NCBI GenBank assembly: GCA_054600435.1
Contig: BAAIJX010000002.1
Span: 1-64,000, forward strand
From: Neophaeotheca triangularis
Lineage: Eukaryota
Reading direction: 5' to 3'
DNA length: 64,000 nt
The position numbers were made by a program, and so were the translations under genes. The notes beneath the pieces were generated by a model. The model saw only the letters and a program-made list of their open reading frames with translations, made no database searches and had not been told where the DNA came from. Shown here piece after piece: positions 2,421-53,226 of this stretch (within the stretch, counting starts at the first letter, position 1; every line of letters starts with the position of its first letter).

Positions 2421-3611
2421 CTGACATGAAGTCCACTTTGACCGCGAGTGTTCCGCTGGGTTCAAGAGTTGAGATAACGAGCTGCCAATGTATTTTGAGA
2501 GAGCGAGATGTGAACGGCGAGGCTGAAGTGGGTGTTTAACTCGGAGGCTGTAATGATACTCGCGATAGCCTTCCAGGATGAAAGCTACTGAGCCTCGCCA
2601 TCCATGGCTTAGCGAGGGCAGTTGATGCGCTGGCAAGCTACACCATCCGTAATTGAGTTGGATGCCAACACCTTTTGCTGTATGCAGTCAGCATGCACAA
2701 GCTGCACAGCCCTTGAGCTGGAGCTCCTGTAAGAGCTTCACTCAGGCCAGACTAGACTATGAAATCGAGATTGTAAGCGTCAGCTCTGCACCAAGAGGTA
2801 CCTAGGTAGGCACTCGGGTCGAACGCATCATGGTCTTGCGATACGACATGTGCACATGTATCTTATTATGGTACCCCCGTCGTATGGGTGTCAACAGCGG
2901 TCCACGGGTCCTTGTCGAGGCTGAGCTGGGGACGGTCGCACAAGGCTGGCGGTTCGCAGCCCATATGCAAGCCTCTCGCTTCTAGCGGCTCGAGAAAGCA
3001 GCAGAGCAGAGACGGTGGCGCCAGCGACATTCACCCGCCAGCCGTGATGGGCGGTAGGCGTATAGTGATCACACTTGAATATCTTGGCAAAGAAGCACCA
3101 ACTACAAGGTAGCAAGTGATGATGTAGAGATGTAGAGATGTAGTCGTCCCAAAGACGTTGGAAGAGCGGAAGGCACTCCTCGTCGCCCGAGGCAGATTGT
3201 CTTGGCAAGCTCCCCTTCCAGTACACGCCCAGCACATGAACTGTCCATTACAGTATACCAACTCGAAACTACCCACAACAAAACCACCCCAAGTCTCAAT
3301 CGCGACAGACCCTCTTCACAAGACCCTCCAGTCCCGTCACCACCTTGGTTAGCCCTCTCCCTCGCTTACATTACCGAATCCCAATGGCAGAAGAAGGGTC
3401 CTTACGATTCAACACCCACGGCATCGAGCTCAATGCACGAAGCAAAACGATTATATCGAACATTCCGTCAAAGAGTAGCATGCAATACCCACAAGAACTC
3501 CAAGCGAACGCCACGCTAAAACACATTGACTCTTCGGCCGCCACCGATTCCCTCCCACTCCACCGCCCTTATTCTCCTATCTCTTACCACCACCATCATT
3601 ACCCTGAAGGC

Positions 3612-5751
3612 TCATCCCCAAGGCTGCTGCCCCTGCTGTCCAAACTGTCCATACTGCCCGTGCATCGCCTGCCCCTGACCACCAAAAGCCTGTTGCGGCT
3701 GCTGCTGCTCAAAGCCCTGCATCCCCATACCCATGCCCATACCCATTCCCTGCTGGCCCGTCATTTGCGGCTGCATGCCTTGGGCTCCAAACTGTCCCAT
3801 GCCCTGCTGCTGCTGACCCATTCCCATGCCCTGCATACCCGTAGCCTGCGCCTGGATACCCTGCATTCCCTGCCCCTGCGCCGCCTGCCCAGGCCGAGGA
3901 AACACTTCCGTTCCACCCCCAAGTTCAAAACCCCCCATTGTAGGCTGTTGTGAATTCTGCCATCCAGAGCCTGTAGCCTGATTGACAAAAACAGATTGTC
4001 TGAAAGGGTTCGTGCCCGTGGCTTGCGGTTGCAGCATACTCTGGCCTTGTTGAGCTGGAGGCGGGGAGTTATGCGGTGAAGGGCGTGCGAAGGGGTTGGT
4101 GCCGGTTGGTTGGGCTTGGAGGGGGGAGAAGGATTGCTGAGGTTGTTGTTGTTGAGGTTGTTGTTGTTCGGGTTGCGGTTGCTGGTTGCGGGCGAATGGG
4201 TTGGTGGATTGGCGTTGGGATTGCTGGGGTGAGAGGCCAATGGGCATGGAGGATTTGCGGAAGGGGTTTGCGCCGGTTTGTTGGGATTGCATGGGTTGTG
4301 GTTGCTGATAGCCCGCGCCATTTTGCATTGGGTCTTGGGTGAATTGTGGTTGGGATTGTTGAGGTTGCTGGGCGAAGGCGTTGCCGGTTGGGAATGCTTG
4401 TTGCTGAGGTTGCGGTCCGTAGCCGCCAAAGCCAGCGCCGGTGGGTTGCATTTGGAGTTGCTGGGGCATTTGTTGTTGTTGCTGCGGCATTTGCTGCTGC
4501 GGTTGTTGAAACTGTTGCTGCGGTTGCCCGAATGGGTTTGATTGGCCGTCCATAGTCTGCTGCTGAGGGAACTGCATGCCCGTTTGTTGTGGGGCTTGGA
4601 AGGCGTTACCAAAACCGGTAGGTTGCTGCTGCTGCTGCTGCTGTTGAAATTGCTGGGCATTGTGCGCCATGGGTTGTTGGTTTTGCTCGATGCTGTCGAA
4701 GAAGTCGATAAGATCGGGCGCTGGTCCCTTTGCCGGAGCTTGGCTCTGACTTTGCGACGGAGGCGGTCCTGGAGGCGGTGCGACGGCCGAAGGAGAAGTG
4801 ACCGGCTGCTGCGGTTTTGCAGGCTGCGAAGGCTTCGACATACCAGCACCAGGCTTTTTCCCACTTTGCTCGGCCAGATACTTCTGCCTATTGTTGTCAA
4901 AGTCCTGATCGTCCAAATACTCCTGCAAAGAAGCCGCCAAACTGGTAGGCGCGTGCTTGATTTTCGGAATCTCCAGCCTCGTCGCATGCTCGTATTGCCT
5001 GGCAACAGCCAAAAACTTGACAACCTGATCCGTCTGCTTACAGAACCGCGAGTATATGCTAATGGCCCTCTCCGCATCCGGCCTCGACATCTCAAAGTAA
5101 TGGCTGAGCACATTCATGACCGCCTCATTCTGCACCGCATATAGATCCAGCAAATCCTTGGTCAACAGCCGGAAAGCCATGAGCGAAATCTCATTCTCCG
5201 ACTCATTGTCCAGCAAATCGCACTTTACCAGCACACGAATTTGATCCTGTATCACCTCCGTCTCCCTCAACAAGCCCTTATCCACCGTCAACCTCCTCAT
5301 CCTGCCCTCCCCACTCCTGACAAAATCGCATTGTGTAGAAGCGAAAGCTCTCGCGCGCGCGACCAAGTAGTCCGAGTAACGTCTTATGTTATGGCCTTGG
5401 GTCTGCACGTCGGTGAAGCTGTTCATAGCCAGCCGGTTGGCGGGCGCGGCGGATAGGTAGCTGAGCGTGACATCTTGCACGCCCTCTTTGATCATCAGGT
5501 GTACGATTATGAGCGCTTTGAAAGCGACGGTCCATGTTGAGTCGCGTAGGCGGCCGGTTAAGGAGCGGAAGACATCGGCGACGCCGGCTTCGCCAGATTG
5601 TGTTGCCTGGAGGATATGTTCGACATATTTGGATTTGGGAGGGGCGGCCTGAAATGGAGTCAGAGGAACGGTATGTAGGCGTACATATCGACTATATTCA
5701 TACCTTGACCTTGGTGCCGCCCTTGACCGATTTCTCGAATGAGCTCGACAT
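3612..5751 (-). CDS. YAP1801/YAP1802-like: ANTH-domain clathrin coat assembly protein (AP180/Yap180 family)
   Basis: Exon 1 5751..5704 (MSSSFEKSVKGGTKVK), intron 5703..5649, then AAPPKSKY...WTVAFKALIIVHLMIKEG (ANTH domain). Q-rich tail has a DLIDFF clathrin-box-like motif, five NPF motifs and QxTG repeats. The ORF-track start at 6062 is an artefact. Confidence 0.93.
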
Positions 5752-6872
5752 GGCTGCGTTGAGGGCGTATAAGGGCGGGGTGTTTGAGTGGTAGGTGGAG
5801 TGGCTATCGCAAGGACAGCATGATGCGACGCAAGGGAGAGCAAGGGTTCATGCAATGGAGAGAAAGGTTTCGGTATTAATTGATTGGGTGTATGGATATC
5901 TGTCATTAAAGCTGCGCACTTAGCCCAAGCTGCACGAGGTGAGGTTGGAGTAACGCGGCCGGGAGTCTTGGCACAACTCAATAGGGATTGGCAGGGACGG
6001 GATGGATGATTGAGCAAACAGACAAAAACCAGGAAGGGAAAGGAACATCCATGTCGCATCAAATAGCCTCGAGCAATACTTTGACCACATGCAAGAGAAG
6101 TTTTGCTGATGTCGATTGCTCTGCCGTCTTCAACTCTAAGAGCGTTTCCTGAAGTACGATGGTCTGCTCGCCATGGACAGGCAAAAAGGCGGTTGTTTCA
6201 ACCCCCTTATCAAGACCTCAATGATGGTGAAAGAAGGAACGAGAGATGGAAGAGGAAGACCCGCAGGTATTAAACGGCAAATAGCTCCATTTGTTCTACA
6301 TAACCCACGCCGACTCTTGCACGCACGCAGCCGTCCGACCACGCGCCATGCAAACGCCAGCTCAGCCCTCACAAACAGAAAACCCATTCGCAGTTTCAAA
6401 AGTTTGGATCAGAGATGCCATTTCTTCGCGTCCGTTGTAGTAACAAGAAGGGTGTGCCGAACGCAGATTTCACGCTGCCTCGCACCTCCGCCCTCGCGCC
6501 ACTTGAGCCCAGTGAAGGGAGAGCTATCGAAGGCGGGAAGTGGAGGACAGTTCTCACCTGGTACACGCTAAGCTTTCATCATCTGGAGTAGCTGTTAGTG
6601 TTGAATGTGTGGGCGAAAAGGGCTGTGCAAGCAAACGTACATGTTTTGAACTGGAAGGATTCGTGGAGAAGAAAAGAAGAGGGAGTGAAGCTGGCTGCGA
6701 TTCGAATTTTGATGGCCTCCAAACCGACAAGACGGTTACGTAAGCAACCCTTTCTGAAGCTAGTCCGCATCTGGGTCTCGAGACTTCATCTCCTAGAATA
6801 CTTAAACCTCGACCTTTCTTTTTCTATCTAATTCACTCATACAATAACCCGCAACAGAGCGGCATTGATCCC

Positions 6873-9159
6873 ATGCAGACTCGTCGCGCCTGTTGCGATG
6901 CCTTAAAATCAGCCAATGCCGTTCTTCGCATAGCTCGCGGCAGAGGTCTGCATGGTGAGTGGCCCATTCATCAAAGGCATGATTTGGCTACGAAGAAGTC
7001 ATCACAGCGCCGCTTGTACAATACTTCTTCAAGTCATGGCGAGGTCCTAGAGTCATACAAGCGGGGTCGTAAGTGCATTCTCAGATACACATCTGCGTTA
7101 GCTGCTAATTTGGACATAGTGGCCGCCCCTAAAGCAGACTACTCTTTCCGCAAACTGCGGCAGAGTATCGTTGAACGTGGCTACGATGGTCAAGCTACGA
7201 TCCATGGATTTCTGGGAACCAGACGCAACGCTTCCAAATCTTTGACCTTCGCCGAATTACATGATCCAGAGGACCGCGAAGAGCATATCCAGCTTGTTTT
7301 TAAAGCCGACAAAGACGATGTGATGCTGAATCAGATTCGTAATATGCCCGATCACTCCGTTGTAGCCGTTGCTGGTGTTTCGAAAGTAAGAAAAACCAAG
7401 TCTGGCGAGCAAGGCGTAGAGTTAGAAGTCTCTAGCATCCACGTCCTGAATGAGTTTCCCTCCGATATCATCATGGCTCCCGAGACTAGATTCAGCCCTG
7501 AGCAGAGGCATCTGCAGCTGCGTAATTCGAAGGAGATTCGTGACGCCCTCAATGCCCGATCCCGAATAGCAACACTGGTGAGAGAGAGCCTTCTCAAACG
7601 GCATGGCTTTGTCGAGATAGAGACGCCGATCTTGTTCAAATCGACACCTGAAGGTGCCCGAGAGTTTTTAGTGCCGACGAGGACACAAGGTCATGCTTAT
7701 GCTCTTCCTCAAAGCCCGCAGCAATATAAACAGATATTGATGGCGAGCGGCATTCATCGGTACATGCAGATTGCCAAATGCTTCCGAGACGAAGACCTTC
7801 GTGCGGACAGGCAGCCCGAATTTACTCAGGTACAGCCTCCCGAATGCCACGAGATTAGAGCTTCACTGACAACATTGTAGATTGACCTTGAAATGTCTTT
7901 CGCTGATGGACAAGACGTAATGAAAGTCATCGAGTCATTAGTCGCTTCCGTGTGGTGTGCAACATTTGGGTCTGATGAACTACCACCCGAGCTAGTCAGC
8001 GCCAACGGAGGGTCGGCTGATGCAGGGCTCGAGTCAGAGCCACCGTCACCATCCCCATTCCAGCGCATGACATACGAGCATGCCATGAATCGATATGGGT
8101 CAGACAAGCCTGATTTGCGTTTAGGCGCAGAGGTAGAGATCCGCCCAGTCACGCTCGCCTACGCGTCATTACCAAACTAACACTCAACAGATCCACAAGA
8201 TCGACTACATGCTCCCAGTCGACCTCGTCAGCAAACTCGGCCCTCTCACCGACCCCATCGTCGAAGTCTTCAAACTCCCCATCTCCGAAGATGCCCAAGA
8301 AACCCGCGACTTCGTGACCTCCTTCATGGACTCCCCAGCCTCCCACCCCTTCACCACCAACCCCGAAGGCCAACCCGGCATATTCATCTACGATACGCGC
8401 AAACCTCTCCAAGGCCTGCAACCCTTCGGTTTCGAAGCAGCCGAAGCAATCGAAGACCTCCTCTCCCTCGAAGACGGCGACCTCGTCGTCCTCCAAGCCC
8501 GCAAATGCACTCAACAACACACAGGCGGCTTAACACCGCTCGGCAACCTCCGCCTAGCCCTCCATCGCGCCGCCGTCGAAGCCAAACTCCTCCCGCCACC
8601 CACCGGCTTCAAATTTCTCTGGATAACCGACTTCCCGCTCTTCACACCGACCAAAGACGACCCCGCCGACCCAGGGCAGGGCGGCTCACGCGGTCTAGCT
8701 TCCACGCACCACCCCTTCACCTCCCCCAAAACCCCCGCCGACATCGACCTCCTCCTCACCGACCCCTTGGCGGTGAAAGCCGACCACTACGACCTCGTCG
8801 TCAACGGCGTAGAGCTGGGCGGCGGGTCCCGCAGAATCCACAACGCTGCGATGCAGGAATTGATAATGCGGGAAGTGCTAGGTATGTCTGACGAACGCGT
8901 GGGGGATTTCAGTCACTTATTGGAAGTTTTGCGGGCCGGATGTCCGCCGCATGCGGGTATTGCGTTGGGGTTTGATAGGCTGGTTGCTGTGCTTTTGGGT
9001 AAGGAGAGTTTGAGGGATGTTATTGCGTTTCCCAAGAGTGGGAGAGGGGAGGATGGGTTGGTTGGGAGCCCCGGGAGGTTGACGGAAGAGCAGTTGCGGA
9101 CGTATCACTTGGAGCTCAGAGGGAAAGGGGAGGATGGGAAGGGGAATGGGTCTGGCTGA
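6873..9159 (+). CDS. MSD1: Mitochondrial aspartyl-tRNA synthetase
   Basis: Motifs [83 protein letters not shown]. Introns 7069..7119, 7830..7880, 8133..8190. Arg-rich N-terminal presequence. Confidence 0.95.
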
Positions 9160-9354: not shown

Positions 9355-11079
9355 CTATCCCTCCTTCTCCTCACCCGCCCTCCGAGCAATCCTAACCTCA
9401 AGCCCACTCTGCACGACGAAAAAAGTCGAATGATGCTTCAACTCCCCATCCGGTCTGAGCAACTCAAACTCATAATCCCTAAACAGCATTGGCAGAGTCT
9501 TGTTCATTTCCAGCAGCGCCAGATTCTTGCCGATACACAAGTGGGAACCGCCTCCGAACTGATTGTGGCATGATCATTAGCGAAAGAGCGTTTCAAGATC
9601 ATTTTTAGGCATGCGATGAAGAGCAACACCAACAGCAACAAGCAACAAGCAACGAAACGCGACCAGAAGAAAAAAAAAACACACCTGAAACATAAACCTC
9701 TCCATGCCCCTAATCCTGCCCTCATCCTCCCCCAACCACCTCTCCGGCCTAAAAGCTCCACAATCCTCACCAAAAGTCCCGCGATCCCGGTGTAAAACCC
9801 ACGCATTCACCGCCACCCTCGTACCCCCGGGAAACATCCTCCCATCGACCTCGGCACCCCCCTTCGGCACAAGACGCGTGATGTTCAGTCCCACCGCCGG
9901 TCGTAGACGCATAGTTTCTTTCAGACAAGCTTGGAAGTAAGGCAGGGCTTGCACTTCGTTCCAAGTGGGACAAGGGCTGAGTCCGGCGTTGAGGATTTCG
10001 TGCACGAGAGTTTTGTAAATGGTTGGGGAGCGGAGAACGTGGTGGCAGAAACTTTGCATAGTGGAAGCGGTGCTATCGCTGCCCGCGAAGATGGCGCCGT
10101 GGGCGATGGCGAAAACGTCGCCGGGGGTGAAGTTCTCCGGGGCTTTTTCGTGGGAGGTGAGGAGGTGGGTGAGGATGTCTTTGCGTTCGGGGGGCTGGGT
10201 TCGGGTTTTGCGTTTCGCGACTTCGTCGAGCGCCATGCGGGTTATGAGGAAGTTGGAGCTGTTGAGCCAGGGGACCAGTTTCCATAGCGGGTTGCGGCGG
10301 AAGAGGAAGTCGAACTCCGGGATTTGACCGATGAGGCCGTCGTACCATTGCATGTCGTCGATGGTCTTGATGGCGTTTTCGACGTCTGTGCCGGTTGCAA
10401 GGAAGCCAAAGTTGCGGCTGAAAGCTATTTCGCCTAGGACGTCGAAGGCGAAGTAGTGGAGCCAGTCGCCGAGGTTGCAGTATTGGGTTGGTGAGGTTGC
10501 CATGGCGTTGAGTTTGGCGGTAAGGGCTTTCTGCGTCTCTTCAAAGCAAGGAGAGAGAGATTGCATGCTGCTCATGCTGTAGGCGTTGGAGGCGTAGCGT
10601 TTCTTTACTCCGTGCACGCTTTCGCGGGTTTCCGTGAATATGTCAGGGTTCTCGGGGGGTGGGAATACGGCGTAAAAGTCGGTTTTGTGGAAGCCTTTGC
10701 CTGCTGCGAGGATTTCTCGGGCGGCTTGGGGTGAGGAGAGGGAGAGCTCGTTAGGAGCTATGCGGACGATTGGTCCATAGTGGGCGTGGAGGTTGATGTG
10801 GTCGGTCTCTGTGTGGCCTTTGTAGGTGCTGATGACTAAAAAAACTTGTCAGCTTTCCGTATTGATGGTCTTTTGGTTCGTTGGGCTATTCCTACCCTTC
10901 CACGCTCGACTGCCCGAAGCCAGGAATGGTCCTGGATATTGACGCAGTGGCGAAGCATAGCGTCTGTAGAGAAACCGCAGAAATACGAAAACCGGCATGA
11001 ACAAGTACCAATTCGCCCTCAACACCCTGATTGCCTGTACGGCATGACTGTCCGGAACGTCGACATTGATGACCGCCAT
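9355..11079 (-). CDS. Cytochrome P450 monooxygenase (pisatin demethylase/benzoate 4-monooxygenase-like clan)
   Basis: N-terminal TM anchor then PLRQYPGP; YGPIVRIAPNELS; I-helix AGSDST; ETMR (ExxR); FRPERW; heme motif FGGGSHLCIG. Introns 10895..10836 and 9684..9559. Confidence 0.93.
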
Positions 11080-11436
11080 GTTGAGATGATGGCTCCTCGC
11101 GTGGGCTGTTGAATCGCACAACTCTCTTCAGAAATGCTGACGCGAAGAAAGGGGAGAACAGAAGAGGAGGGAAGGGTGGTGTTGGTGTCTTACCGTCCCG
11201 TCTACATACTTACCTGCATCCGCCATCATCGAGGTACCGTCTTTCGGCAGATGTGGTTGATGCGGTACCGTTGCGATAGACGGGGTTGCGTGGAACCGGC
11301 TAAATGCTAGGGTACGCGCTGGCGACGGTTGATACAAGCAGATACGGCATCTGTAGCACCTGATGTTCGGTGGCTCGCGAGTCGTGATGGTGGAGGTTGG
11401 TAGTGACGGAGGTCGAGGCTTGCTTCGTGTCGTCGG

Positions 11437-11583
11437 TGATGCGGAAGGCGTCGAGGGGACGTCACGTGACCCCGTGACGTGGCACTAGGCCTAGGCCCGT
11501 ACATGCATGCATCACTACCTTTCTTTAGCTAGCCTTCTATAGACATCTTCTATAGGATACACATTTATGATACTTACACATTA
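11437..11583 (+). repeat. 5' LTR (147 bp)
   Basis: Ungapped alignment to 19612..19758 gives 134/147 identity by manual count; all 13 differences are C/T or G/A transitions. Confidence 0.96.
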
Positions 11584-11584
11584 G

Positions 11585-11593
11585 TAGTAGCTA
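11585..11593 (+). promoter_or_regulatory. Putative primer-binding site (initiator tRNA-Met type, RIP-altered)
   Basis: TAGTAGCTA lies 1 nt after the 5' LTR. Reversing two TG>TA changes gives TGGTAGCTG, complementary to a ...CAGCUACCA tRNAiMet 3' end (tRNA sequence recalled, not checked). Confidence 0.5.
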
Positions 11594-11699
11594 AGAATCT
11601 AAGTGTTACGATTCCTTCTTAAATCACTAGGGTTAACTGATTAAATTCGACACCTACTACGCCCTCCCCAACATCTTACTATAGTACACCACGCCTACC

Positions 11700-13980
11700 C
11701 CTACTCGAAAGTAGTACTAAGCCTATTTAAGGCACTAGCCCTCCTACCTACCTTACTTAACCTATAAGCTTCTAGGACCTCCTTATAGACTAGTTCTACA
11801 TCTTTATGAAGACGAACCCTTAGTAAGTCACTAGCTAAAGAGCTAAGACGTTATATATAAAGTATCGCGAGCTCTTCTCAATTCTATAAGACACTATATA
11901 CCTACTAGAGTGGTTAGATAACTATTTACTTAAACGCTATATCTAAGGCGAGTTCATGAATAAGTACTCCTACCTACTAGTCGACTCCCTAAAGACTAGC
12001 TCTCTAGGGCCCTTAAGACGCCAAACTTCGCGACTAACTCGCTAGAGTACACTACGCTAAGTGTTTACTATAGTATAGGAAGGACCTAGCGAAGAGCTAT
12101 AACTACCTAAGATACCGAACTAATTAGTACCTTCTTTAGTAGGTCGGTAGCTTCTTAATGACCTTCTAGGCTGTTTCCCTAACTATGACGTTAAGGTTAA
12201 TACATAAGTCCTTAATAACCTCTATGTCCTAGAATAACAAGTCATTATCCTTAAGTAACATTCTACCTAAGACCCGGACCCTAACCTGAGTCTCTCTAAG
12301 TAAGAGGTCTACTCTAAGGAAGAGGTCTATGTCCCTAAATAAGACCTTACCTAAGACTCGGAATTAAGCGACTATATTCCTTAGGACCCGCTTTTTTATG
12401 TCTAAGGGCCCTAGTAGCTCCTAAGGCTAATAGAGCCTTTCCTAAGCCTACTACCTTAAGACCTAGAGACTTAATAATCTTCTAATCATTAGGCCCTAAC
12501 GACATCTACTATAGTAGACCGATATAGCTAAAGCGACGACACTAACAACATGGAGCCTTTTACTTAGGTATAGCTCACATTCATGAACGAAGTAATTACT
12601 TACGCTATAGTAACTATAAACGCCTCTCGTACCTATGATACCCCTCGTACCCACGACATCCTATACGAACAACACGACACTCTATATGAGCAACATAACA
12701 CTCCTTAGGAGATAGGAGCTATAGCTACTATAGCTACTATAGCTATAGCTACTTAGGACAGGTCTTTTATTAAAGACAGCGAGATTAGGTTCTTTAACCC
12801 TTTACTAGACGACACCTTTAGTACTTAAGACTTAGTTTATAACGGGAACTATATAGTCTTTTATAATGTTAGCCTCTTTATCGAAAAACTAAAGAATGTA
12901 TTAGTATACTATAGGTCCGAGAAGGTAAAAACCTGTATTCCCGGTCTACTCTAAGGTACTATCTTGATGTAGTATAATAGCGCCTTAGATAAGATTACTA
13001 AAACAGGCCTCTACTATAGCGGAATTGAACACTAGTATAAGACCCTAATAAGCTAATTCCGTAAACCTCTCGTAGAATCTCTAAGCCGCCTCTTGCGCGC
13101 GAAATACTCTTTATATAATACTACTAATAGATATTTAGTCTCGGAGTATATATACGACATCTAACGTTACTATTATAATATAGGCTAGACTAAGGATTAC
13201 ATACACCTAACCTATACATTCGTAGGATTAGACCTAATCCTATAGAACGGTCTGTCTATCCTTATAGCCTTAGACATAGTCCTAGGTTTCGTCTTTAATA
13301 TAGAGTAATGTCGCGACACTTAGGAGTCTTTAGCTAAGTCTTAGCTCTAGGGTAGTCCTAACTACTCTACTAATCGAGGTAATTACTAGTAGTATAGTAA
13401 CTAGTACTAGTAGAATTAGACGACTAACTATAGCCGTCGAACTGATAACGCCTAGCGACAAGATGCCCTATAGTAGCTAGGGTACTCCGCCTAGTAGTAG
13501 TAGGGGTATCGAGGCTACCGCGCTAATAACCGAGAACCTAATAAGACCTACCTTACTATTACTAATAGTAAGGCTAAACCTAATCGTTACTTAAGTAGGC
13601 CCTCCTCGTAGCTATAAGGTAAAACACTACTACGTCTATTCTAGTAGAGGTAAACCTTCTACATAAACCAAGTTAGCGTAGAAGGTAAAGGAGATAGGAG
13701 CGAAGTAGACGATGAATACGAAGATGTATTTAACGTTAACTAAGATATGGAGGAGGAAGCTTTCGATGATAACGATGTTAGTAACATCGACATTAATGTC
13801 GGGAATATCTAGCTTATATATACACTAGAGAGTACCTACGCGTATACGACATACCGCCTCTCTTTTAGCTCTCGGAACAAGCTACATGATCACCTTAAGG
13901 AAAACTATACCTCTAAGACGCTAGGGGGTAAGCAGCTACTAGATCCGAAAAGCAAAAGGCCTTACTAGACCTAATATTAC
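11700..13980 (+). pseudogene. gag: RIP-mutated gag with a C-terminal C2H2-type zinc finger (boundaries approximate)
   Basis: One frame interrupted by TAA/TAG. EI(G)FF(D)P...VFxNVxLFIEKL at ~12781. (C)TT(C)RLSFSSRNKLHDHLKE at ~13843-13905, with the Cys codons converted to TAT/TAC. Confidence 0.75.
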
Positions 13981-13982
13981 TT

Positions 13983-16900
13983 TAGTACGCTACTATTAAT
14001 GTATCCTTTAGACCTAGTAGTGCTGTTATTCGTGCCTACCTAGACTCTAGTATACTAATACCGCTTATAGATAAACATTTACTAGTACGGTATTACTCTA
14101 AGGCCTCTATCATAAGACGCCACTATAGCGCCTATATATGTAGAGTAGGAGGAAAGATCAGCATCTACTATTACGTAGTAGACCTCACCTTATATAGCGA
14201 AAACAACACTAGCTTCCCATTACAACTATACCTTATAGACGAGCTCTATATAGGTTTATTAATTGACATCGTAACATTCTATCGATAAGACTTCATTTTA
14301 GACTTTAAGTACATGTTCTTATACATGAAAACTAGTTCTACTCTTATATATATTTAACGCGAACTACCTTCTTTCGATAAAACTAGCCTACCTAGGTATA
14401 GGATTTTATCCTCTAACTTGACATATATCGACATCGACCTATTATCCGTTTTAACCTACTATGTCGAGGTCTAGTAAGAGAAACGCCTTGAAGCTATAGT
14501 AGCGGACCTAGCGCGAGAGCATATTAGCCCGTATAGTACAACTATCTACGATTAGAGCTAAGACGCAGCTAAACGCATCCAAGTTTTGCTTAGGAGCTAT
14601 ACTGTCCTCTTTTAGGACGATAGTAAAATGGCGAACTTCCTAGAGACTAATTGGATGAAAATTCCCCTTGTTAGCGACTAGCGTGTCTCTAGCGTAAGAC
14701 TTGTATATAAGGTCTATAGTATAGGCCTAACTAACCGAGAATTGATCGACACGACCTTTAATAAGCTCTATAACTAGGGATGTTTAAGCTAGACAAAGGA
14801 AGGTACCCCGTTTGCTTCTCCTATCTTTATCGTCTCCTAATATGTCGACGGATTACGAAAGGGCTATGTAGTAGTAGACGTCTACGCCTTAAATAGCATT
14901 ATTATCACTAGCGTATACCCGCTACCGCTACAATTAGACATGACCTCTACATATATAGGTTGCTCATATATTTCTACTATTAACCTAACATCTTTCTTCT
15001 ACTAGTTTTAGGTCGCTCGCGCTAATAGACATAAGCTCACTATAGTGACCTACTAGGGGTAAGAGTCCTTTAACATTCCGATTATAGGACTTAAGACTTC
15101 GCCGCCTTATACTTAGTATAAGATCGACTCGATACTACGCGAATTTAGGTATAAAGGGTTCGTAAAGGCCTTTATAGATAATACCGTCGTTTTTAGTAAG
15201 ACCCTTAAAGACTACCTCTAGTATCTAGACTAAGTCTTCTACGCCTTTAAGGCTTATAACCTCACCGTTTCCCTAACTAAGTGTTTCCTTAGTTACCCTT
15301 TAATCAAGCTCCTAGGACAATGTGTCGATGTATTAGGCCTTAGCACATCGGAAGAAAAGATCGAAGCGATCCGCTCCTTATCCTTTCCTACGAACCTAAA
15401 GGACCTAGAGCACTACCTTAGTCTAACTAGCTAGCTATATACTTTTATCCGCAATTATGCCTACCTCGCGGAGCCACTATAAGAGCGTAAGACCTAAGGT
15501 CTTAAGCTCGTACCTACGTCTAGCTATGTAAGGTCTTCTTTCGTCGCCTAACATGAAATCAAACTAAATCCGGAACTTGTAATAGCTTTTTATACTCTTT
15601 AGACTACATTTATAAGACCTACTATACTCGTATACTATGACTAGAACCGGCCACTATACATGTATATCGACGCCTTAAAGAAGAAAGGTTTTAGTATAAT
15701 AGTCTACTATGTTAAAGGCGACCCTAAGACAGACAACCCCTTAAAAGCGAAGACGTAACTAGTGCTTTTCCTCTCCAAGACGCTATCCCCTATAATATAA
15801 CAGTACTAGCTAACGGAGTTAGAAGTTGCCTACCTCATATAGATAGTCCATCGAGTTAGGTAGATAATTAAGGCCAGCTTAAAAGCCGTAATTATTTTAA
15901 CGGACCATGCCGCTACTATAGGAATTGTGACCTAGACATCATTAGCGTCTAGCTTAGTAGATAAGCTAAACAATCGCTTAATAAGGTCTTCTTAGTACCT
16001 CTCCTAGTTTCTAAACCTATGAATCATTTACCGTCCTAGTAGAGAGTATACTATTCTAGATGCCTTATCGAGGTTACTATTAGGTCTTGATAAGACTATC
16101 TAAGCCGATAAGGACATCCTAGAGGAGCTCCTCCTCTCCTCTTATGTAACAACCTTAGTTAAAATTGACCCTATCTTTAAGATATAGCTCATCTCCTAAT
16201 GTCGATTAGATAAGTACTTCGGTAGTGTTTACGTACTAGCCTAGACCGCCGAACCGGGAACAATAAGTTTTACCCTTAACGATAGCCTTTTATAGCATTC
16301 CTTAGACGAGGGTTATAGACTCTATATCCTAAAGTCGCTTCAAGGCGACATTTTCTAGGTAGTGTATGATGAGTAGTTCTATATTAGTTACTAAAGGATG
16401 TACACTAGACTTTAAGAGAAGTACTACATTTAGAAGTTAGCTAACCGCCTCCGTCGTTATGTTAGACATTACGAGGAGTATAACTAGACATAAACGAAAC
16501 GGCATAGACCCTATGGCTTAAGTTACTTACTATAGACTCTACCCTTACCGTTTCACACAATTATGATTAATTTCATCATAGGGCTCCTAGTAATCATAGA
16601 CTAGGCGAATTTAATCTTAACCGTAACCTACAAGTTCTTAAAGCGAGTGCTTTTAATCCTAGGCTTCGACAACCTCTTAGCTAATACATAGGCTTATAGG
16701 CTTCTCGACGCCTTACTATAAGCTGACTAGGGCATCCCCTCTTACTTAATCTCTAACTACGACCCGAAATTCACTTCTTAAGTCTAGCGAACACTCTTTA
16801 TAAGACTTAGGGTTAAGCTACTATTAACTACTATATACTATCTCTAGACAGATAGGCAATCTAAGAGAAGTAACTAGATAGTAGAAGTTGCCTTATACTA

Positions 16901-17640
16901 CTACCTACTCAAGTATCTAGATAGGGAACTCGAGTAGGAATATATACTACCTAAGCTTCAATTCGTCCTTAATAACTCTATCTCCGCGATAATAGGTAAG
17001 ACCCTAAACGAGTTATGTTATAGGTTTCGCCTATATGAGGCTTTAGACCTTATAGCTCCTAGAATAGACATCGACCTTATCGATATAAGACGAATCGCGC
17101 GATAAGAGGCTTAAGACGCCATTAGTTATACCTAATCCTAAATAAAGTCGCATTTCGATACGAATCATAAGGATTAGAAGCCTACCATTAGCTAATAGGT
17201 TTTCCTCTAGTTAGATCACTATAACATACTAGGAGTTAAAAACTAAAAGCTCTCTTAATAACACGTCGGACCTTACTAGATAAAGCGTATTATAGATAGC
17301 GGCCTTATATGCGAACTCGCATTACTAGCCTATTAGAAGATCTACCTAACTATGTCTATAACCGAACTTGAGCTAGCCCTAGATAGTAATGACCCTTTTA
17401 AGAGATAGAGACGCCCTATAGAAAAGGTTAAGACCCTAGTTTAAGAGGGCTTTCCCTACCTTAAGAAACTATTAGACTTATGTATACGAAAGATCGGTTA
17501 TAGGAGATAAGAGATACTCGAGCTCCTTATTAGGTAGAAAGGCTAAGATATAGGTTACGATTCATGGGAACGTAACGACACCTTACTACCTAATATAGTA
17601 AAAGCCTTCTAGTATATATAAGGGAAAAAGGGACTCTACT
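13983..17640 (+). pseudogene. pol: RIP-mutated pol (PR-RT-RNaseH-IN-chromodomain)
   Basis: Motifs: A(C)LDS(G) protease ~14034; NWMKIPL 14649; YPLPLQ ~14915; F(I/V)D(D)TVVFSKT 15171; YIDA(S)KKKGF(G) ~15663; Y(W)(P)TELEVA; FHTIMI(D)FIIGL(P) ~16551; IS(D)xDPKFTS; chromodomain LLIR(W)KG...YDSWE ~17523-17570. Protease, RT and chromodomain motifs checked to be in the same frame. Confidence 0.92.
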
Positions 17641-17890
17641 AAGTCCTTACTTCTAACTCCTTACTCGTAGTCCTTACTAGGGACTTACATGTTTATGTAG
17701 CTAAGTATATATATTATAAACCTTAATTTTCTACCTATATCTTTAGCTCCTTACTACCGTAACACTTACTAACTACAACCTACTACTAACTACTTTCGAC
17801 TCTTCTATTTCTTCCTTACCTAACCTTCTTTAATACTATTACTACCTTCCTACTATACTAGCCTATCACTTCATCATAATAGCTTACCTC

Positions 17891-19447
17891 ATGATGTCTA
17901 GTATTAACTCTAACTAGACCTCTAGTAGCGCGTACCTAGACGGCTCTACTAAGCCTACCTTTACTACCGACACTAGTAAGTCGAACTAGACTACTAAAAG
18001 TACCCCTTAAGATAGTTCCTTAAAGGCTACTTTTACTACTATCGCGAAACCTAGTTTCACTTCTAACTTCCCTAGTTATGCTAAAGGCATCCTAGGTTTC
18101 ATCCTAGGCTTTAGACCTACTAGTACTAACAACATACCCGACACTACTACTAGCGAGTCTACTAGTACTAATAAGATGCCTAACACTACTACTAGCGAGT
18201 CTACTATTACTAATAAGACGATCGTCGCTACTACTAAGGCGATACTAAGTAAGAATAAGACCTAGGCTATCCCTAACAGGTTTATAGACGACTACAACAT
18301 TCTCATAGAGGCCTTATAAACTACCCCTAAGAAGACTTCTAAGCTTAAGACTAGAGGTAGCGCGAACAATACTAAGACCTAGGCTATAGTAGAGAAAACC
18401 CTATATGAGATCCTAGCGTATAAGGCTACTACCTATATGAGGTTCGATACTAATAATGCCTTCGTCGCCTAGACTTCCTACGAAGTCTTAGCTAAGATTG
18501 ATTAGGATAATGAAGACTAGCTTAAGACTACTAGCAAATCTTCTACCCCCTAGGCTAATAAAGTAGCTTTCTAGAAGAAATTTAGTACTAACGATACCTT
18601 CGCTACCTAGGCTACTCGCATAATTATGGCTAAGATTAATATAGATAGTAGAGACTTTATAGAGCGTATTGTCGTAGTCGCTAAGGCCTAGGAACTAGAC
18701 ACCCCGTCCTTAACATAGGAGTCCCCCTCTAACGAAAAGGACCTCTATAAGAAGCTAAAGTTAGTCTCCAAGATGCCCTAAGCTAACCTGATCTGCTAAT
18801 CCTAGTAGGATGACACTAATAAGGGCCCCTATTAGGACAAAAACATAGACGAGGCTATTACCGCTAATAAGGACACTCTATATACTATCGCGAGCTAGTA
18901 ATCTAGCTATGAAGACTTAGTTATCTACGACATAAAGCTAAAGTCGCTTATTAGCTCCTAAGTTAAGCGCGACCTCCTTACTACATAGAATAACATTAGC
19001 GCTACCTTACTTAATAAGGGCACTATCGCTAACAAGCTACACTCCCTCTTTATAAAGGATAACGCGCCCTACCTAATCCCTTTTATCGCGAATAAGGTTG
19101 AACTTAGGCGCATTATAGTTTTAGGTTATGCCTAGGCTACTAGTAACCCTACTATCCTAAAGAAGTCTACGTCGAAGGAGGCCACTAAGGCGATAAAGAT
19201 AAAGAAGAACGCCGATTTAGCTAAAGACTAAGACGCTACTCTATAGGAAGCTTTAAACGAAACTGCTACTATAGCTACTACTACGACCCTAAAGAAGTAT
19301 AAGGCTACGGGTAAGGCCTCTTCTAAGGTAACTAAGACCCTAAAGCTTATAGTTACTCCTAAGAAGGAAGATAGTAGCGATAAGGAGGAAGATAGGGACG
19401 AAGATAACGATGAGCTAACCTAGCTAGCTAAAGACTAAAGCTTTTAA
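17891..19447 (+). pseudogene. RIP-masked additional ORF (ORF3) of the retrotransposon, ~519 codons, function unknown
   Basis: Starts ATGATG at 17891. The frame is interrupted only by TAG/TAA. It contains an in-frame 42-nt tandem duplication, a 46-codon-spaced protein repeat, and a Lys-rich then acidic C-terminus. Confidence 0.7.
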
Positions 19448-19611
19448 GCTTAGGTCTTATCTAACATATCTACCCCTTCGAGCTTAAAGATCTAGATCTT
19501 AGCTTAAATACTTACCTAACTATAGTAGCTTTTCAGCTTATACGATAGTAGGAGTTTTGTTTTAGGTAGCGACTACTTAAGGGCATATGCGGTCTTTCAT
19601 GACCCCCCCTC

Positions 19612-19758
19612 TAATGTAGAAGGCGTCGAGGGGACGTCACGTGACCCCGTGACGTGGTACTAGGCCTAGGCCCGTGCATGTATGCATCACCACCTTTCTT
19701 TAGCTAGCCTTCTATAGACATCTTCTATGGGACACACATTTATGACACTTGTACATCA
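19612..19758 (+). repeat. 3' LTR (147 bp)
   Basis: Direct repeat of 11437..11583; ends CATCA, followed by TSD GTCGG. Confidence 0.96.
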
Positions 19759-19973
19759 GTCGGTAGTTGAATGTGGGGTGAAGCTGAGGGGGTGGATCTC
19801 GGCAGTTGGTTTGACATGGTCCCACAGCCTCACAATTGACACCTTATCCTTTTGTAAAACCGAAGCTGTAGTTCCATGTAAAGGCCGTCAATTTCTTGGG
19901 TCAGCTAATCACTGAGAGCCGACCTGTTGTCACAGATTGCTGGTCCTCCGCAAGCCTCCCTTCACGCCAGTCC

Positions 19974-21113
19974 CTACACCTCGGTCCTCGCCTCCTCCCC
20001 AGCCCATGCCCTCCGAATACACTCCTCTAAAGGCACCCTTTCAATAGCCCTGGGGTTTGCATAAGGCCTCTCGACCGCCAATTCTGCTACCTTTCCTATA
20101 TCCTCCTCTCGCAACCCCAGACTACGCAGACTTCTTTCGACTCCCAACTTCCCAATCAATACGTTTAGCCCCCTAATAGCATCACCCTGACTCTCAGGCA
20201 ACACTGCCGCAAGCTTAGCCATTACTTCTGGTACAGCAGGCGCATTATAGGCAAGCGCGTGCGAGAGAACAATTGTGTGGGTCTCGGCGTGGGGGAGGTT
20301 AAAGCTGCCACCGAGAGTGTGGCAGAGCTTGTGATGGAGGGACATGCTTACGCTTCCTAAGCAGGTCGCGCAGAGGTAGGCGCCATATTGTACTTTGCTT
20401 CGAGCGGGGACGTCGTTGGGGGAGGCAACTAAGGTTGGGAGTGAGGTGGCGAGGGCGCGGATGCCTTCTAGGGCGAGGAGATCTGTGATTGGGCTTGCTT
20501 GTTGGGCATAGAGTGCTTCGACTGGATGGCGTTTCGTTAAATATTCATCCGTTGGTTTAGTGTGCCGGTGTCACTTACTGGCATGGGCGAGGGCGTTGAT
20601 CCCGCTGCAGGCGCTTAGTTTGACCGGAAGGCTCATGGTCAAGTCGACGTCCAAAATAACTGTCGCTGGGAAGATCTTCGGATCACTTCTCGTGACTTTT
20701 TTGCCATCCTTCGTCTCGCCCAAGATTGAAGTCATCTCGCTTCCAGAGTACGTAGTCGGGATGCAGATGTGCGGCGAGCCAGTCCTGATGCTAATCGCCT
20801 TGCCCAGTCCGACAGTAGATCCACCCCCAATGCTCACCACGCAATCGGCATGGCATGCCTCGGCGTACGTGAGTGCTTTGGTGGTGATGTGGGTTGGCGT
20901 GTGCATTGTGGCTTCCGTGAAGAGGCCAGCATGTTCGATGGACTGGCCTTTCAAGACTGCAAGGAGAGACCTGGCTTGCTCAATTTGATGGGGCCCAGTG
21001 AGTATCAAAGGCCTTGATACGTCTAGTCTCTTGATCTCCTCTGGTAGTTTTTGAATGCATCCCTGTCCAAAGACCACGCGGACTGGGTTGGGCATGTACT
21101 CGAACGGATCCAT
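19974..21113 (-). CDS. Maleylacetate reductase (iron-containing alcohol dehydrogenase family)
   Basis: MDPFEY..NPVRVVFGQG, IGGGSTVGLGKAI, IPTTYSGSEMT, SGINALAHA|IEALYA (intron 20578..20522), MSLHHKLCHTLGGSFNLPHAETH, PYANPR. Confidence 0.92.
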
Positions 21114-53134: not shown

Positions 53135-53226
53135 GGCCGCGTGGCCCAATGGCAAGGCGCTTGACTACGATTGCTTACAACGGCATTGGTATCAAGAGAT
53201 TCCAGGTTCGACCCCTGGCGTGGTCA
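53135..53226 (+). tRNA. tRNA-Arg(ACG): tRNA-Arg (anticodon ACG) with 20-nt intron 53171..53190
   Basis: Acceptor stem GGCCGCG/CGTGGTC; D-arm TGGCCCAATGGCAAGGC; anticodon arm CTTGA-CT-ACG-A^A-TCAAG; T-arm CCAGG-TTCGACC-CCTGG. Mature length 72 nt; downstream T-runs. Confidence 0.96.

Follow-up and report, generated by a model that had tools for sequence, protein, structure and literature searches.

A probable third gene, disabled by repeat-induced point mutation, between pol and the 3′ long terminal repeat of a chromovirus-type element in Neophaeotheca triangularis

The window analysed here is the first 64,000 nucleotides (nt), forward strand, of contig BAAIJX010000002.1 from Neophaeotheca triangularis (GenBank assembly GCA_054600435.1). 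Between ~12 and 19 kb of the window the GC content drops from ~0.53-0.57 to 0.37-0.40. Positions 11437-19758 are one complete 8.3-kb insertion, a Ty3/Gypsy chromovirus-type long terminal repeat (LTR) retrotransposon destroyed by repeat-induced point mutation (RIP). The LTR pair and the 5-bp GTCGG duplication directly outside it establish this as a single complete insertion. Gag and pol are followed, ahead of the 3′ LTR, by a further long open reading frame (ORF), here called ORF3, which the original prediction, made from the bare sequence, took for an accessory gene hidden by RIP. We find this to be the best reading. ORF3, running in the sense direction from 17891 to ~19423, is probably a dead gene, the third in a lineage of fungal chromoviruses with three genes, as judged from its coding signal on the plus strand and from an intact sense ORF3 in the same slot of related elements.

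The frame begins with ATGATG at 17891 and can be followed for 519 codons to 19447. Its 29 stops comprise 20 TAG and 9 TAA with no TGA, which agrees with the description of TAG and TAA as the sole interruptions. The position assigned to it, past pol (stops at 17610, 17619 and 17640) and short of the 3′ LTR, is likewise correct. The end at 19447 did not hold up: the original stop was likely at or near 19421-19423 or 19436-19438. Read to 19423, ORF3 has 27 stops in 511 codons (5.3%; 5.6% over the full frame) and contains no Gln and no Trp codon.

RIP has marked this region strongly. The RIP indices of 17891-19447 are 2.61 for TA/AT and 0.28 for (CA+TG)/(AC+GT), while the flanks have 0.62-0.75 and 1.15-1.32. 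What RIP does to a reading frame in this element can be read from pol. Of the pol stops, 65 align with six intact relatives, every one of which has Q (14-19), W (11-13) or R (7-11) at those sites. Totalled across the six alignments, the relatives have 90 Trp positions, and at 72 of these the window has a stop. The stop density of ORF3 (5.3%) can be set beside those of pol (6.1%) and gag (7.7%), and beside the Gln plus Trp content of the relatives' ORF3 (5.1% and 6.2%). Because these densities match and no Gln or Trp codon is left, ORF3 is damaged as much as gag and pol, and in the same manner.

The openness of the frame is not what base composition would give. Dinucleotide-preserving shuffles had 49 ± 6 stops per plus-strand frame against the 29 observed, and in 0 of 500 shuffles did any of the six frames fall to 29 or fewer. 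The RIPped gag and pol of the element itself served to train a codon log-likelihood model, which, when cross-validated, chose the true frame both from pol to gag and from gag to pol. This model scores the sense frame of ORF3 at +0.167 per codon and the other five frames negative (antisense -0.033). All four sub-segments of ORF3 agree, including those without repeats, and shuffles reach at most 0.027. Three-base periodicity is 35 in ORF3, 7.5 in pol, 9.8 in gag and 1.5 in the leader that precedes gag. The TA dinucleotides of ORF3 are also phased, with 152 of 241 straddling a codon boundary, as RIP acting on a C-ending or purine-starting codon pattern would produce.

Related elements supply an undamaged view of the slot. 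When metagenome contigs were scanned with six aligned intact polyproteins, 16 loci emerged, and among these only the short L015 has RIP-like indices. The pol of the relatives is 42-44% identical to the damaged pol of the window. Five of their contigs carry a sense ORF past pol (Table 1). The sequence beyond it aligns with the LTR region of the window, and in L003 unrelated DNA follows, so the ORF lies within the element. Antisense ORFs in this slot reach only 81-95 codons; the long intact ORF is the sense one. These ORF3s are 24-31% identical overall and share a homologous N-terminal domain of ~90 residues (E 1e-17 and 2e-18) with the pattern RQRK...HFNSxxWDxxYIDxYRxMLEKFIxD. The domain is predicted to be helical; after it come a basic stretch of low complexity and an acidic tail with W-x-[VI] at its end. 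Between L004 and L010 there are 23 differences in 2731 bases of pol, 5 in 185 of the spacer and 1 (synonymous) in 294 of ORF3, which would point towards constraint on ORF3, in small numbers and in one close pair.

Table 1. Features of the element in the window, and ORF3 of related loci (positions of the latter on their own contigs).
Feature	Position	Strand	Remarks
Target-site duplication GTCGG, 5′ side	11432..11436	+	identical 5 bases at 19759-19763, directly outside the LTRs
5′ LTR, 147 bp	11437..11583	+	begins TG; ends TA, the expected RIP product of CA
gag core, RIP-ruined	12541..13947	+	36 in-frame stops in 469 codons
pol (PR-RT-RNase H-integrase-chromodomain region), RIP-ruined	13950..17621	+	74 stops in 1220 codons
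pol-ORF3 spacer, pyrimidine-rich	17622..17890	+	position homologous to the 135-197 nt spacers of L001, L003 and L010
TCACTTCA motif	17866..17873	+	25 nt before the ORF3 ATG
ORF3, probable RIP-killed third gene	17891..19423	+	~510 codons to TAG after ...DEDNDELT
Three tandem copies of a 42-nt (14-codon) unit in ORF3	18117..18242	+	repeat search, Tandem Repeats Finder (TRF)
37-codon segment, duplicated and diverged	18416-18526 and 18554-18664	+	138 nt apart
C-terminal Lys/Thr-rich block ending in acidic tail EEDRDEDNDE	19136..19420	+	18 Lys (8 RIP-ambiguous), 17 Asp+Glu
GTTTTGTTTTAGGTAGCGA block beside a purine run, upstream of the 3′ LTR (putative polypurine-tract region)	19555..19573	+	resembles the relatives' TTTTCTTTTAGGCGGCA, by eye
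3′ LTR, 147 bp	19612..19758	+	direct repeats, pairwise alignment, end-string look-ups
Target-site duplication GTCGG, 3′ side	19759..19763	+	
L001 ORF3	6128-6895	sense	255 codons, complete
L010 ORF3	2917-3696	sense	259 codons, complete
L004 ORF3		sense	99% identical copy of L010, cut by contig end
L003 ORF3	3211-3801 plus 3802-4161	sense	one frameshift
L006 ORF3		sense	start only, cut by contig end

The region upstream of ORF3 also has a counterpart in the relatives. There each spacer has a TATA-like box, TATAAA or TTTAAA, and within the next 10-17 nt TCACTTCA or TCACTTCG, for which the common consensus is TCACTTCR. TCACTTCA stands 54 nt before the ORF3 ATG in L001, its sole occurrence there, and 53 nt before it in L003; for TCACTTCG, in L010 and L004, the distance is 72 nt. 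On the plus strand of the 64-kb window TCACTTCA occurs a single time, close to the ORF3 ATG. We infer that the TATA-like box and TCACTTCR form a putative conserved internal promoter or initiator-like region. Each LTR of the window contains a near-palindrome, GACGTCACGTGACCCCGTGACGTGG, with sites of the CACGTG / ACGTCA type (19630-19660 and 11455-11485), and similar TCAC(G/A)TG motifs are present in the pol-ORF3 spacers of L001 (5990-6010) and L010 (2790-2830). Motifs of this type may be transcription-factor sites common to the LTR promoter and the putative internal one.

ORF3 of the window is internally repetitive. The 42-nt tandem duplication reported at 18141 and 18183 exists, as part of about three copies with 100, 88 and 69% identity (2.4-2.9 copies by TRF). 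The protein-level repeat 138 nt apart also exists: the ungapped self-comparison at an offset of 46 codons scores 57, shuffles score 32 ± 4 and 0 of 60 reach that value. The many synonymous differences ascribed to it were not found. Over 26 codons the two copies have 8 identical, 2 synonymous and 16 non-synonymous codons, with 49 of 78 nt identical. Since only 2 of the 18 differing codons are synonymous, this repeat looks like an ordinary diverged DNA duplication and gives no evidence of selection on the protein.

A second, divergent and less RIPped copy of the element was recovered on contigs of one DNA run, possibly that of the source assembly; no RNA run was listed with this stretch. Of the two copies, which differ at 179 places, the window is more often the one with the RIP-mutated base (A>G 44, T>C 56; in the other direction C>T 21, G>A 10), and none of the 40 places listed falls in ORF3. 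The second copy runs from pol into ORF3 as far as 18126 and then continues past it, where a 30-nt loose end matches, by eye, the third 42-nt unit with a 3-nt difference. It appears to have one 42-nt unit where the window has three, in which case the length differences there would all be multiples of 3. Two other assemblies under the same organism label have no contig on the element or its single-copy flanks (window 11000-20200), which may mean a different lineage or filtering.

These observations would fit the following history. The element would have carried gag, pol and a sense third gene in the slot between pol and the 3′ LTR, a slot conserved across the clade, with un-mutated relatives keeping an intact ORF3 of ~255-260 codons. 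An internal promoter would have driven ORF3, giving a subgenomic mRNA that ended in the 3′ LTR; the promoter is suggested because a TATA-like box and TCACTTCR precede the relatives' ORF3. RIP would then have turned the Gln and Trp codons of ORF3 into TAA and TAG and recoded much of the rest, a conversion that would leave this copy of the gene dead. The window ORF3 would be a very diverged, internally duplicated version of the relatives' gene, or else another coding sequence that had come to sit after a common upstream stretch.

Several points weigh against this history. First, no search links the two proteins. The original prediction had proposed looking for intact homologs. Un-RIPped relatives with an intact sense ORF3 in the slot do exist, but their ORF3 has no detectable similarity to that of the window, which is twice as long. 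Neither blastp nor tblastn of the window ORF3 against the relatives gave a match in the ORF3 slot, hhalign against the relatives' ORF3 gave E 0.17 with a probability of 0.4%, and a hidden Markov model of the relatives' ORF3 had negative scores only on the window. RIP-tolerant Smith-Waterman alignment, in which every TA is readable as CA or TG, gave z -0.9 to +0.4 for ORF3 (+1.5 for the distant L012), with the gag control at z 37. Profile versions of the RIP-tolerant comparison gave z 1.1 and 0.6, and the profile of the relatives' N-domain, run over the window in six frames, gave z -0.9 to 0.9.

Wider searches were equally empty. Phmmer found 0 matches to the window ORF3 among 1.84 billion representative proteins, and a word-indexed search found none at E <=10 among the 7999 candidates sharing words with it. 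Gag, used as a control for the word-indexed search, was missed as well among 1644 candidates. Since tblastn run directly recovers gag at E 3e-34, the miss is due to the length window and word index of that search and not to RIP. No Pfam family matched either strand of the X-masked ORF3. When ORF3 was run by tblastn against 28 loci, the only match below E 0.01 was to a Thr/Ser-rich stretch upstream of the pol of L022 (E 8.5e-4 with composition correction off), which we judged to be low-complexity.

Second, the pol of the window groups apart from that of the ORF3-bearing loci. In the FastTree phylogeny of pol the window pairs with L008 (support 1.0) and then with P0003-P0006 (0.82), and the ORF3-bearing loci form the neighbouring group (0.98). 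No ORF3 is visible for the window's own sub-clade, where the contig of L008 ends inside pol; the contigs of P0003, P0005 and P0006, at 8.2-9.5 kb, have room for one. Third, only two copies of the element were found, and the periodicity of the frame may be partly due to the in-phase internal repeats and the strong TA phasing. Fourth, the codon-aligned antisense frame is as open as the sense frame by stop count (28 stops, no TGA; the -1 frame has 33 stops, no TGA), so stops alone do not decide the strand. Equal openness of other frames was an outcome that the original prediction had named as refuting it, and by stop count the antisense frame shows it. It is the codon model that the antisense frame fails. 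Finally, the promoter reading rests on short motifs.

The alternative that survives best is that the slot holds a coding sequence of other origin, such as a transduced host gene fragment or a captured ORF, unrelated to the relatives' ORF3. It would suit the absence of similarity where gag (35%, E 3e-34) and pol (43%) are easily recognised, the 510 codons as opposed to ~257, and the placement of the window in a different sub-clade from the ORF3-bearing loci. We nevertheless consider it improbable. Pfam, phmmer and the word-indexed search found no host or other homologue, TCACTTCA lies upstream both in the window and in the relatives' ORF3 cassette, and the second copy of the element also has the start of the region. 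Accessory ORFs evolve fast, moreover, and even among the relatives the ORF3s are only 24-31% identical.

It is quite improbable that there is no gene at all, and that this is a non-coding, repetitive, pyrimidine-rich 3′ region whose open frame and periodicity are by-products of RIP. The tandem and 138-nt-offset repeats have unit lengths or offsets that are multiples of 3, two or three frames are similarly free of TGA, and 1.84 billion representative proteins include no homologue, all of which such a region would allow. It would not explain a stop depletion and codon score beyond all 500 dinucleotide shuffles, nor a model trained on gag and pol that is positive in four sub-segments, repeat-free ones included. 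The stop fraction equals the expected Gln plus Trp content with no Gln or Trp codon left, and the slot of the relatives holds a real ORF.

Least probable is a minus-strand gene like the brtn of Boty-type elements: such genes are known in Botrytis Boty/BcGypsy1 (in the passages available of PMC8365987) and in plants (likewise PMC7264820), and the codon-aligned antisense frame is open, but the codon model separates it from the sense frame by ~100 nats over 519 codons, its translation is rich in Leu, Ser, Arg and Gly as is typical for the antisense of a coding frame, and the relatives have their long intact ORF in the sense direction.

A probable dead third gene in sense orientation leaves the question of what its protein was. 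The view of the original prediction that it was probably not an envelope protein is supported. A simple hydropathy scan found no transmembrane segment in the window ORF3, the highest 19-residue Kyte-Doolittle mean being 1.01 (relatives <=1.33), and the N-terminus is polar; with no hydrophobic segment and a polar N-terminus the protein is not env-like. The env-like ORFs of errantiviruses and plant Gypsy elements have a signal peptide and a transmembrane segment, whereas the window ORF3 has neither by hydropathy. The Lys-rich block and acidic tail on which a chromatin or nucleic-acid role had been based are partly sound. The tail ...KKEDSSDKEEDRDEDNDE is present, but the Lys richness is uncertain: in 33 of the 59 Lys codons of ORF3 the first A is preceded by T, so they may derive from Glu codons through RIP, and the basic character of the protein is uncertain for that reason.

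The relatives offer somewhat more to such a role, which stays speculative. Their ORF3s have a basic middle and an acidic tail, and that of L003 contains GRPKGSKNK, whose only match in the PDB is the HMG-I/Y AT-hook peptide 2ezd (9/9 residues identical; 17 residues, E 0.14). The likeness to HMGA (HMG-I/Y) proteins, a basic stretch followed by an acidic tail, would be a resemblance only, and no GRP motif is present in ORF3 of the window, L001 or L010, which leaves the AT-hook to L003. An anti-silencing role is unsupported.

We therefore raise only tentatively the suggestion that ORF3 encoded not an envelope protein but a soluble accessory factor that would bind DNA or chromatin in the nucleus. 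A fuller version is slightly more doubtful: an ascomycete-type clade of three-gene chromoviruses whose promoter-equipped third gene would encode a fast-evolving nuclear chromatin protein, HMGA/H1-like with an acidic, aromatic-ended tail, that steers integration or blunts silencing by heterochromatin, and of which the window would hold a lineage-specific, internally duplicated, RIP-killed version. If true, fungal Gypsy elements would possess accessory regulators with a role like that of their counterparts in complex retroviruses.

Structure and family searches did not narrow this further. AlphaFold2 models of the relatives' ORF3 (4-row alignment; mean predicted local distance difference test score, pLDDT, 42.9) and of the X-masked window ORF3 (pLDDT 33.1) were of too low quality to support a fold search. 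The ESM Atlas scored the intact L010 ORF3 at 0.84 at best, short of the lead threshold of 0.9, with no family. A profile of the relatives' ORF3 run against the PDB matched fish interferons (3piv, E 0.001; 7wkh, E 0.15) at profile positions 60-124, within the conserved N-domain; these are probably chance helical similarities over ~40-65 residues. The idea of a WH2/acidic-Trp (VCA-like) pattern was dropped after Pfam found nothing in the C-terminal parts of ORF3.

The nearest likeness to ORF3 of the window is ORF3 of the relatives L001, L010/L004 and L003. They belong to the same pol/gag clade and share the slot, the strand, a similar spacer with TCACTTCR and an acidic tail, perhaps also a basic middle. 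They differ in having ~257 codons and a conserved N-domain, whereas the window has ~510 codons, no Trp codon, an acidic tail DEDNDELT followed by TAG, and no N-domain detectable in any frame.

Extra genes of LTR retrotransposons are the raw material for retroviral env and accessory genes, and most of those on record come from plants and insects. Once RIP has acted, ORF finders no longer see such genes, and fungal transposon annotations therefore miss them systematically. Our literature search for fungal examples returned only the antisense brtn of Botrytis, and no sense ORF3 with a promoter-like region in fungal chromoviruses. The copy in the window is dead and has no present function beyond that of an AT-rich, RIPped island. 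L001 and L010, which are un-RIPped, are intact sequences that can be expressed and tested.

Among the systems described elsewhere, two occupy the same slot. The aORF-3S of plant and insect LTR retrotransposons are sense ORFs between pol and the 3′ LTR and include env-like ones; according to the parts of PMC7264820 at hand, they occur in most copies of a lineage, usually lack an outside homologue and mostly have no assigned function. ORF3 shares their slot and orientation. The aORF-3S are mostly env-like with transmembrane segments, and some are spliced, whereas ORF3 has no hydrophobic segment and a fungal host, and the TATA-like box of the relatives would point to an internal promoter. In plants and insects, antisense ORFs are known from this slot too (PMC7264820).

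The other system is brtn, an antisense additional gene in the pol-3′ LTR slot of Boty-like (BcGypsy1) Ty3/Gypsy elements of Botrytis cinerea (passages of PMC8365987, citing Zhao et al. 2011). The same passages note that brtn is missing from the latest genome annotation and that other additional ORFs are predicted in Botrytis Gypsy elements. Like ORF3, brtn is an extra gene of unknown function in that slot of a fungal Gypsy element. It is antisense, however, and both the coding signal of the window (sense favoured by ~0.2 nats per codon) and the relatives' ORFs are sense, a distinction drawn here from the published description of brtn. The passages at hand from a survey of fungal LTR elements (PMC3248453) mention no third ORF, and those from PMC2774666 mention a third ORF only as env.

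The remaining parts of the element behave as expected of a RIP-ruined gag and pol. The 5′ LTR is 92% identical to 19614-19760 in the direct-repeat search. The X-masked translation of gag matches the gag of L005, L001 and L014 (E 6e-35, 3e-34 and 1e-32), with 35% identity to a relative at E 3e-34 by direct tblastn. The leader of ~950 nt between the 5′ LTR and the gag core (11584-12540) has a weak coding score in the gag frame, and the gag-pol ORF of L001 has a Ser/Thr/Pro/Gln-rich extension of ~250 residues ahead of its capsid-like core. For both of these reasons the true gag start probably lies further upstream, inside the leader.

Pfam finds RVT_1, RT_RNaseH and Integrase_H2C2 in that order in one frame of pol. 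The X-masked translation from reverse transcriptase (RT) to integrase has 96 protein matches; the strongest (E 7e-262) is 45% identical and covers 98% of the query. Pfam Chromo (cut-off 25.1 bits) scores 30.4 in L001, 29.8 in P0008 and 23.3, below the cut-off, in L010. It was not detected in the RIPped pol of the window, whose C-terminus aligns end to end with the Chromo-bearing relatives; these likewise terminate a few residues past the chromodomain. Near the 3′ LTR, automatic alignment left the GTTTTGTTTTAGGTAGCGA and TTTTCTTTTAGGCGGCA blocks unpaired.

Other related elements vary in other ways. L012, a more distant one with a pol 32% identical to that of the window, ends its pol with the AT-hook-like KKRGRPRKS, and at 5309-7833 it has an open frame of 729 codons from stop to stop (~600-660 from its ATGs) that overlaps the pol end, matches no Pfam family and has an acidic end. 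P0006 carries at residues ~150-620, between protease (PR) and RT, a basic insertion of ~450 residues rich in Lys, Arg, Ser, Thr, Glu and Pro and with internal repeats, which is not present in P0003-P0005. On viral contigs 12 distant loci were found, which have 24-28% pol identity to P0003 as the query and were left out of the ORF3 comparison. The pol alignment found 3 loci on prokaryote genome contigs, none of them with the ORF3 slot of a close relative. L029, L030 and L031 are Gypsy-type pol sequences on contigs filed as bacterial genomes or MAGs (Janthinobacterium, an alphaproteobacterium and a Streptomyces assembly), and most likely represent eukaryotic contamination of these records. Elsewhere in the window, one tRNA gene lies on the plus strand at 53135-53226 (Rfam 48 bits); it probably contains an intron, because it spans 92 nt for a model of 71 positions.

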